IMG/VR virus record: IMGVR_UViG_2879765931_000001 | DNA length: 30,734 bases | From: a virus | Lineage: Duplodnaviria > Heunggongvirae > Uroviricota > Caudoviricetes | Strand: one strand, 5' to 3' | Shown: piece by piece, positions 3,577 to 4,992 of the stretch | Layout: each line of letters begins with the position of its first letter | Numbering within the stretch: position 1 is the stretch's first letter | The notes under the pieces: generated by a model | The model's input: the letters and a program-made list of their open reading frames with translations, nothing else | Database searches by the model: none | What the model was told of the DNA's origin: nothing | Position numbers and translations under genes: made by a program

Positions 3577-4992
3577 TCACGATGTGCGAATAAAAAGCCC
3601 GGGCATTGCGCCAGAGACATGAGCATCCGGCACCCCGGACAGGGCGCAATATGACCCTGGTAATGAATGCTCTGAACATCCCGTAATGAAAAATTGTGGG
3701 GATGCTATATACGTTCCGGTGGGAGTACTGGGCACTGAAATCCCCACCGGTCCCAGTCGTGAGCCTCTGTATGACTGCCCCCTGACAAGTCTGATGACTT
3801 TATCACCGTCAGCTTCTCCCTGGTACGCAGCAATAATCAGCCCGCCAATGTCAGGGTCTCCCCATCTGTTGCGGACAGAGCTCGCCACGATTCTGTAAAT
3901 AATATCTTCTGTGGTTATATTTATTTTCACCCAGTCAGTCAGTCTGGATATGGGCCAGTAGCAGTAGCGGGTGTGATAAATGGGGCCGTTAATGCCGTAA
4001 AAAGTAAGGGATTTGGCTCTGTACCGCGGTTCTGTTGTCTCAGGGCGTGCATCAGTCCACCGGATGCTGAGCACCCCTTCAAACCGTGTGTCGGGTATGA
4101 TGATGCCGTAGGGGCCAGCAACGGAATATTCACCTGGCAGCGCATTCCTTACCCAGGCCAGGAAATCACTCTTAGTGTCAAAACGGATAACATCTTCAGG
4201 CAGAAAAGCACACCCAAAGCCGAATGCGCCGGGTATCGCCAGACGGCCTTTTGTCCGGTCGTAAATGTCGCTCTGTGCTTCCATCGTGGCCGCACTTTTC
4301 AGCCCCAGATTATCCCGGGACTTCTGTTGTGCCTTTTCGCCTGCTGCTGCGATTTCTGACAGATGGTTAGCCATTTTCAGAGTGCCGGTCAGCGCAGCAT
4401 CAATGTCATTTTTGGCCTGTTCTGCTGCGCGGGCATAACCTGCGGCATCCTGTGCGCTCTGTCCGGCTGCGGCTGCATTTGCTCCTGTGCTTGTCACATC
4501 TTCCGCAGTGGCCTTTCTGTCCTCAGCTGTGACGGTTGCATCCTGTCGGGCTTTCTCCGCAAAACGTTGTGCATCATCACGGGCCGTTGCGGCTGCCGCC
4601 ACATCCTGCGCCGTCTGCTGTGCGTTTCCGGCTGCAGCCCCGGCACTCTGCTGCGCCTGCGCCACCATTTCCTCAAAGCGCTTCATCACCTCCGGACGTA
4701 AATCACCATCCTTTGGTGCATTCAGAAACGCGTTCAGTGTCCCCGGTGCATCAGTCGGTGCCACATCAATATCCCCGACACGGGTTGGCTGCCAGCCGTT
4801 ACAGTGAAGCGCAACCTCGTAATACCCCGGCTCAGCCTCAATCACATAAGCACCGTTATTGTCCGTCACGCAAGTGGCAACAACGTGTGCCACAACGGTC
4901 GGACTGGTTCTTCTGGCCCGCAGTTCAATCGCACAATTTACGACAGGTTTACCCGCCCCATCTTTCAGTACACCTGAAATCTTTACTGCCAT
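3577..4992 (-). CDS. stf: Side tail fiber protein (lambda Stf-like N-terminus, Ala/Gln-rich shaft, divergent C-terminal domain)
   Basis: Begins MAVKISGVLKDGAGKPV, matching the lambda Stf N-terminus; ATG at 4992 with RBS; the C-terminal ~230 aa do not resemble lambda Stf. Confidence 0.8.
   Translation of the reverse strand: MAVKISGVLKDGAGKPVVNCAIELRARRTSPTVVAHVVATCVTDNNGAYVIEAEPGYYEVALHCNGWQPTRVGDIDVAPTDAPGTLNAFLNAPKDGDLRPEVMKRFEEMVAQAQQSAGAAAGNAQQTAQDVAAAATARDDAQRFAEKARQDATVTAEDRKATAEDVTSTGANAAAAGQSAQDAAGYARAAEQAKNDIDAALTGTLKMANHLSEIAAAGEKAQQKSRDNLGLKSAATMEAQSDIYDRTKGRLAIPGAFGFGCAFLPEDVIRFDTKSDFLAWVRNALPGEYSVAGPYGIIIPDTRFEGVLSIRWTDARPETTEPRYRAKSLTFYGINGPIYHTRYCYWPISRLTDWVKINITTEDIIYRIVASSVRNRWGDPDIGGLIIAAYQGEADGDKVIRLVRGQSYRGSRLGPVGISVPSTPTGTYIASPQFFITGCSEHSLPGSYCALSGVPDAHVSGAMPGLFIRTS

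Follow-up and report, generated by a model that had tools for sequence, protein, structure and literature searches.

A probable phiP27 L56-type side tail fibre gene and its putative DUF4376 chaperone gene in a decaying ipaH prophage of Shigella flexneri

The virus record IMGVR_UViG_2879765931_000001 (Caudoviricetes) comprises 30,734 nucleotides (nt), and this whole stretch of DNA is referred to here as the window. It carries a side tail fibre gene, stf, on the minus strand at 3577-4992. This gene is very probably a fibre gene of the phiP27 L56 type which, together with the cognate DUF4376 chaperone gene behind it, is intact in a decaying ipaH prophage of Shigella flexneri. The feature is ordinary and already known. 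Its family has been catalogued, and RefSeq holds the exact Stf, DUF4376 (WP_134797390.1) and IpaH proteins of the window, the first two from Shigella flexneri. Tail fibre mosaicism being textbook knowledge, the locus has little weight as a discovery.

The assignment is carried by the family of the fibre and by its genetic partner. The whole Stf protein is collinear with phiP27 L56 (490 amino acids, aa; 39% identity, E 3e-84) and belongs to PHROG 2636 ('tail fiber protein'), with an E value of 2.4e-218 for the whole protein and of 1.1e-102 for the last 240 aa. According to a preliminary description of the locus, its idea of a divergent, swapped C-terminal domain would fail if this domain were highly similar to common Stf variants, and at the family level this is largely the case. 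The gene directly downstream encodes a protein with the PF14301 (DUF4376) domain, as in all six genomic contexts of such fibres that were examined. The features of this cassette are the following.

3577..4992, minus strand: stf, side tail fibre coding sequence (CDS), 471 aa plus stop (PF08400, ribosome-binding site, RefSeq identity)
5008..5029, minus strand: terminator-like hairpin between lom and stf, inside the 5' extension of the long stf open reading frame (ORF)
4600..4992, minus strand: collar (tail-docking) domain, residues 1-131, lambda Stf-like (PF08400, lambda orf-401, 9e7m_Ta)
4381..4599, minus strand: short Ala/Gln-rich shaft, residues about 132-204, read from the sequence
4290..4380, minus strand: conserved linker LKMANHLSEIAAAGEKAQQKSRDNLGLKSAAT, a junction common to fibres with unrelated N-termini (alignment A1)
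3580..4289, minus strand: C-terminal tip of the PHROG 2636 type, presumed receptor-binding, with two predicted sub-domains
3003..3566, minus strand: DUF4376 protein, presumed tail fibre chaperone or cap, 187 aa from GTG 3566
2866..2887, minus strand: terminator-like hairpin after the DUF4376 gene, before the convergent ipaH gene

The longest ORF at stf runs from 3577 to 5034 on the minus strand (485 aa, upstream ATG at 5034). The PF08400 match begins at residue 15 of this 485-aa ORF, a GGGGTG-type ribosome-binding site lies 5' of the ATG at 4992, the hairpin behind lom falls within the extension, and the RefSeq protein WP_134797391.1 of Shigella flexneri is an identical 471-aa Stf with the same start. 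Therefore, the true stf CDS is most likely 3577-4992, and the ORF to 5034 overstates the gene. The gene stands in the lambdoid tail-operon position after J (fragments at 5723-9203) and lom (5056-5655), and is followed by the helper gene. The J-lom-stf order is also found in lambda and in an E. coli orthologue of the window (L001). The exact Stf and DUF4376 proteins were reported in one 90%-identity protein cluster despite their unrelated sequences; they may be linked by gene calls that are incomplete or run together where stf and DUF4376 overlap.

The collar is the part of Stf that resembles lambda. It matched PF08400 (prophage tail fibre N-terminal) with an E value of 2e-48 (164 bits, cut-off 26.6), showed 50% identity with lambda orf-401 across 121 residues (E 3e-33) and, in a PDB sequence search, matched the solved collar chain of Ur-lambda Stf, 9e7m_Ta (E 3.7e-22). 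By its PF08400 collar, the protein is a lambda-type Stf; the collar role of the Stf N-terminus is taken from the literature (PMC12617516). The preliminary description had likened both the N-terminus and the shaft to lambda Stf. This was confirmed for the collar, and for the shaft in composition only (best BLASTP E 1.4). The shaft does match the shaft parts of several tail fibre PHROGs. It is followed by the conserved linker (NHLSEIAAGG..AQ..SRDNLGLKSAAT), the point at which PF12571-type and other fibres become similar in alignment A1. Short matches to phrog_26622 and phrog_1833 were located in this region, at residues 218-253.

The tip module begins at about 4380, at the linker NHLSEIAAAGEKAQQKSRDNLGLKSAAT, slightly upstream of 4300. 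The last ~240-265 residues of Stf had no significant similarity to the lambda orf-314 tip (best BLASTP E 0.2), and no gp37-type Pfam domain was found in Stf, so that the tip is not of the lambda Stf or T4 gp37 type. The earlier claim that the last ~230 residues are unrelated to the C-terminus of lambda Stf was thus correct, with an onset nearer 4380 than 4300. Among sequenced phages, the tip matched, with identities of 31-37%, the ends of phiP27 L56, Rac-SA53 tail3, SerU-LTIIb Stf, Av-05 gp76 and its relatives and an Actinobacillus phage fibre, as well as part of a Goslar fibre.

To gauge the extent of the tip family, 1.84 billion cluster representatives were searched exhaustively and without a profile. 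This gave 94 clusters at 50% identity, 47 of them with E <= 1e-30. In the great majority of the 94, the tip match is C-terminal, in proteins of about 60 to 1,300 aa. As for its N-terminal partners, PF08400 was found in 36 of 71 representatives and PF12571 (myovirus tail-collar) in 14, and 17 of the 71 contained PF03406 fibre repeats. The PF08400 collar with a PHROG 2636 tip is the commonest architecture of the family; the tip is also carried by Mu-like, P2-type and Vequintavirinae fibres. In several members (P0067, P0068, P0077, P0083 and L004, i.e., Rac-SA53 tail3), the tip was matched in 2-3 separate stretches, often covering only the first ~130 tip residues. This suggests a tandem duplication of the proximal tip lobe in those members and recalls the knob duplication described earlier for Alteromonas phage A5.

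An exchange of modules can be followed in a paralogous locus of E. coli RMDEC465 (L012, positions 3001-4987), where a phiP27-like collar is joined to the shaft and tip of the window. The N-terminal ~110 codons of its stf show 72-98% nucleotide identity to phiP27 and 40-60% to the window. From about window position 4690 on, a sliding-window comparison gives mostly 90-100% identity with the window. The crossover lies at about 4690-4750, in the conserved RFEEMVAQAQQSA, at the collar/shaft junction. Synonymous divergence (dS) is 0.57 in the first half of stf and 0.04 in the second half. Replacement has also affected short patches of the tip (3982-4042) and of the DUF4376 gene (3203-3263). The notion of a swapped receptor-binding module therefore stands in so far as the module differs from that of lambda and an exchange is seen in L012; as a mark of a special fibre it does not, the architecture being the commonest one (36/71).

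Diversifying selection on the tip, with a ratio of non-synonymous to synonymous divergence (dN/dS) above 1 between L012 and the other copies, was first considered. The difference in the L012 tip is partly concentrated in the replaced patch at about 3982-4042, and the counts (about 34-38 non-synonymous vs 7-8 synonymous) are not clearly above the neutral ratio. For these two reasons the idea was dropped, and no claim of selection is made.

The DUF4376 gene is the second half of the cassette. RefSeq places its start at ATG 3626, giving 207 aa and a 50-nt overlap with stf. A GAGGAA box lies 6 nt 5' of GTG 3566, the phrog_1141 match starts at residue 19 of the long ORF, and the 1,804 homologous 90% clusters, mostly from E. 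coli, are mostly 187-193 aa long. Because of this, the product probably has 187 aa, not the annotated 207 aa. PF14301 was matched in the C-terminal half, at residues 90-195 of the 207-aa form (E 5.4e-17, 62.6 bits, cut-off 25), and this was the only Pfam match. The protein showed no similarity to lambda Tfa (E 0.8), and no downstream PF02413 (Caudo_TAP) tail fibre assembly protein is present. The preliminary description had called this tfa-like chaperone atypical. Compared to lambda Tfa it is, but for these fibres it is the standard partner, standing directly after the fibre gene in the six contexts examined (the window, phiP27, Rac-SA53, Av-05, a Mu-like E. coli prophage and a metagenomic phage contig). 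In the five other contexts, the DUF4376 genes encode about 187-190 aa.

What is known of the function of DUF4376 proteins comes from Alteromonas phages, where V22 needs gp27 to obtain active fibres, and gp9 of A5 is dispensable (PMC7289586, PMC10579305). For both proteins, a trimeric cap similar to intramolecular chaperone domains was proposed (PMC7289586, PMC10579305). The intramolecular chaperone domains of T5 pb1 and K1F were likened to the DUF4376 helical body with its central beta-hairpin. In the published chaperones, of 195 and 239 aa, the domain spans residues 92-184 and 138-231, respectively. An AlphaFold2 (AF2) model of the window protein (mean predicted local distance difference test, pLDDT, 85.3) begins with a small beta domain, which is followed by long helices on either side of two beta-hairpins. 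A fold search with this model returned mostly generic helical hairpins, and the published likeness to intramolecular chaperones was not confirmed by it. By analogy with these phages, by homology and by gene linkage, the window protein presumably acts as a chaperone of the fibre.

Some points weigh against the assignment of this pair. The Alteromonas fibres served by the published chaperones have no detectable similarity to the tip, and no Alteromonas record was among the tip matches. Furthermore, several phage records name the DUF4376 gene 'tail fiber protein', so that a structural role is possible. The protein could then stay at the distal end of the fibre as a permanent subunit that itself contacts the receptor, as an adhesin of the T2 gp38 kind, and not be a transient chaperone. 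Next to the label in these records, the cap position on the tip proposed in the Alteromonas work would fit such a role, as would the N-terminal ~60 residues, predicted to be a small beta domain apart from the helical DUF4376 part. However, between the window and the same phages (phiP27 L57 and Rac-SA53 tail4), the DUF4376 proteins are 73-76% identical and the tips only 32-37%, the opposite of what is expected for the part contacting a receptor, and A5 fibres are functional without their DUF4376 protein. A distal subunit is hence considered unlikely, and a chaperone is preferred for the cognate gene of the phiP27 L56-type fibre.

The window begins in ybhB (1-477), which places the element in the region of the lambda attachment site, between bio and ybhB/ybhC. 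Read leftward on the minus strand, the tail genes follow the lambda order, from the tape measure gene H through M, L, K, I, J, lom and stf to the helper gene. Decay of the prophage extends well beyond J and H. Compared to an intact gpJ orthologue, a 1-nt insertion near 6485 interrupts J, which is split at 6465-6490. The tape measure gene H lies in two pieces (11578-12408 and 12440-14347), as does the major head gene (17619-18176 and 18689-19423). Of the head protease, only the C-terminal 97 residues are left (19865-20158). Portal, terminase and lysis ORFs were not found between about 20.2 and 21.9 kb, in the place they occupy in lambda; a Q-like antiterminator gene follows at 21924-22340. Outside these genes, an IS3-family transposase with an rve domain is found at 28932-29771 (minus strand), and a phage integrase-family ORF runs from 30147 (plus strand) to the right end of the window (30734). 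At 771-1046, between ybhB and ipaH, the E. coli orthologue has annotated transposase remnants.

The ipaH effector gene (leucine-rich repeats and a NEL E3 ligase domain) lies at 1060-2823 on the plus strand, convergent to the DUF4376 gene. No MxiE box was found upstream of it in the window with the consensus at up to 2 mismatches. In ipaH-carrying E. coli genomes (L001, L009-L012), the stf-DUF4376-ipaH order is found again, the last gene being ipaHa, ipaHd or ipaHe. The ipaH effector genes thus lie where cargo is usual, directly behind the genes of fibre and chaperone. DUF4376 homologues of about 40% identity, orf-191, are also present near the record start in AF151091 and AF151674-AF151676 (P-EibA, C, D and E). 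They presumably precede the eib immunoglobulin-binding genes. If so, P-Eib would be another case of cargo after a fibre chaperone.

The contrast of an intact stf with a broken J and H, noted in the preliminary description, is real, but it loses its value as evidence of selection. Between the window and the E. coli orthologue L001, 8 indels were counted in 14 kb, 6 of them frameshifting. About 0.6 frameshifts are thus expected in a 1.4-kb gene, and the chance of escape by target size is roughly 55%. One of these frameshifting indels lies in stf, where it breaks the L001 copy, although the J of L001 is intact. L011 shows the opposite, an intact stf beside a J with an internal stop. Because of these reversed patterns, the decay looks sporadic. 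Given the indel rate and the L001 counterexample, the intactness of stf beside broken J and H is probably no sign of selection, and an explanation of the gene as intact because selected was rejected as unsupported.

The window allele is far less common than the beginning of its gene. In 5,426 complete E. coli genomes, the tip DNA was detected by blastn in 42 genomes, at full length in only 10, with as many as 7 places in a genome. Matches to the first ~90 nt of stf were obtained in 3,215 of these genomes. The full-length tip copies examined adjoin ipaHa, ipaHd or ipaHe. Stf protein matches above 85% identity came from Shigella flexneri, S. sonnei, S. boydii and S. dysenteriae and from E. coli, including enteroinvasive E. 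coli (EIEC) of serogroup O124; the comparison with Stf of Shigella and E. coli prophages, which had been proposed earlier, thus found close relatives in both besides the identical Shigella flexneri protein. As judged from these matches, the window allele marks the ipaH-carrying lambdoid prophages of Shigella and EIEC-like E. coli, and the family as such is widespread. A literature search on the tail fibres of Shigella ipaH prophages gave nothing specific to this fibre.

This distribution bears on a broader form of the selection argument, in which selection preserves the stf-DUF4376 pair of Shigella and ipaH-carrying E. coli although the prophages are dead, either for use by the host or as a reservoir of tips for incoming lambdoid phages. 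That tail fibre DNA can be taken up from defective prophages is said to be documented in general. The cassette does recur beside three ipaH types in several prophages, 5 of its 6 examined copies are intact, and dN/dS among close copies is 0.2-0.4. Nevertheless, this ratio is derived from 3-19 substitutions per class and lom gives similar values, one copy (L001) is frameshifted, and many database entries are fragments. Moreover, several related prophages alone give several copies, and target size alone leaves the roughly even chance of escape given above. Selection on the pair is therefore considered rather improbable. A related idea, to which we give equally little credence, concerns what the tip binds. 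With its presumed receptor-binding fold without a solved relative and an allele limited to Shigella and ipaH-carrying E. coli, the tip may recognise a lineage-specific surface structure, and the copies beside ipaH may be a recombination reservoir that re-targets incoming lambdoid phages and their ipaH cargo to Shigella.

The preferred reading of the C-terminal module as the binding tip of a phiP27 L56-type fibre is consistent with its predicted structure. An AF2 monomer model built from 11 sequences (pLDDT 65.8) shows a well-predicted alpha/beta lobe at model residues about 60-150 and a beta-rich distal lobe at about 180-267. Foldseek of this model against viral models retrieved mainly the tip's own relatives, and the best matches in fold searches were phage receptor-binding proteins and fibres. 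The predicted fold is consistent with a fibre tip, without being a nameable fold. Structure prediction, as suggested beforehand, hence yielded a two-lobed, fibre-tip-like model, and the sequence search of the PDB gave no solved relative for the tip or the DUF4376 protein, the collar alone having one. VPS13 matches in that search (E 0.03-0.14) were dismissed as helical noise, and an NCBIfam scan of both proteins gave no family. It is highly improbable that the module is an enzyme, a tailspike-type depolymerase or esterase, since Pfam, NCBIfam and PDB sequence searches gave no enzyme match and the module has only ~240 residues, predicted as two small lobes with no beta-helix. From homology and gene linkage, a receptor-binding role is inferred.

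Taken as a host-range cassette of a lambdoid prophage, the locus would work as follows. The side tail fibre gene comes first and the gene of its cognate chaperone second. A short Ala/Gln-rich shaft and the conserved linker would carry the two-lobed tip of ~240 residues, which would bind a surface receptor. By analogy with V22 and A5, the DUF4376 protein would aid the trimerisation of the tip and may cap it transiently. Comparison between phages shows that tip and chaperone move as one unit among siphovirus, Mu-like and Vequintavirinae fibres. The crossover in the fibre gene lies at the collar/shaft junction, and the linker between shaft and tip is common to fibres with unrelated N-termini. In this prophage the fibre cannot be used, with J and H as well as the major head gene broken and portal, terminase and lysis ORFs not found; the intact gene is probably a small target not yet hit. 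The mapped collar/shaft and shaft/tip junctions, together with the linkage to DUF4376, could guide the grafting of the tip onto lambda-based particles, with the chaperone gene included. Such a grafted tip could serve to test the targeting of Shigella or EIEC.

Among known systems, phiP27 L56/L57 (AJ298298) and Rac-SA53 tail3/tail4 are the closest. They share the PF08400 collar, the short shaft, the linker, the PHROG 2636 tip and a DUF4376 gene of ~187 aa directly after the fibre, at the end of the tail operon. As in the window, the fibre cassette is situated at the prophage end by the attachment site (attR in phiP27, attB in Rac-SA53). The chaperone is well conserved between them and the window (73-76%), but the tip is only 32-37% identical, and Rac-SA53 tail3, with 1,061 aa, matches the tip in two separate pieces. 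Furthermore, phiP27 and Rac-SA53 are inducible or complete phages, whereas the window copy belongs to a defective prophage.

Lambda shares the gene position and a homologous collar (50% identity), whose structure has been solved in Ur-lambda (9E7M/9MGH). In contrast, the tip and the helper gene of the window are both unrelated to those of lambda. Ur-lambda Stf has 774 aa, a T4 gp37-like tip binding OmpC and a Tfa of the PF02413 type.

In the Alteromonas phages V22 (gp26/gp27) and A5 (gp8/gp9), the DUF4376 gene also directly follows the fibre gene, and fibre and chaperone were exchanged together between unrelated phage morphotypes. Their tips, however, have no detectable similarity to that of the window, and dependence on the chaperone was tested in Alteromonas phages alone. 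The 416-aa fibres of Mu-like and P2-type prophages of E. coli (e.g., P0034) have the same linker and tip (43-45% identity) with DUF4376 downstream. They differ in their N-terminus, PF12571, which is a myovirus baseplate-attachment domain and not a lambda collar, and in being a second fibre, placed after a first one with a PF02413 chaperone.
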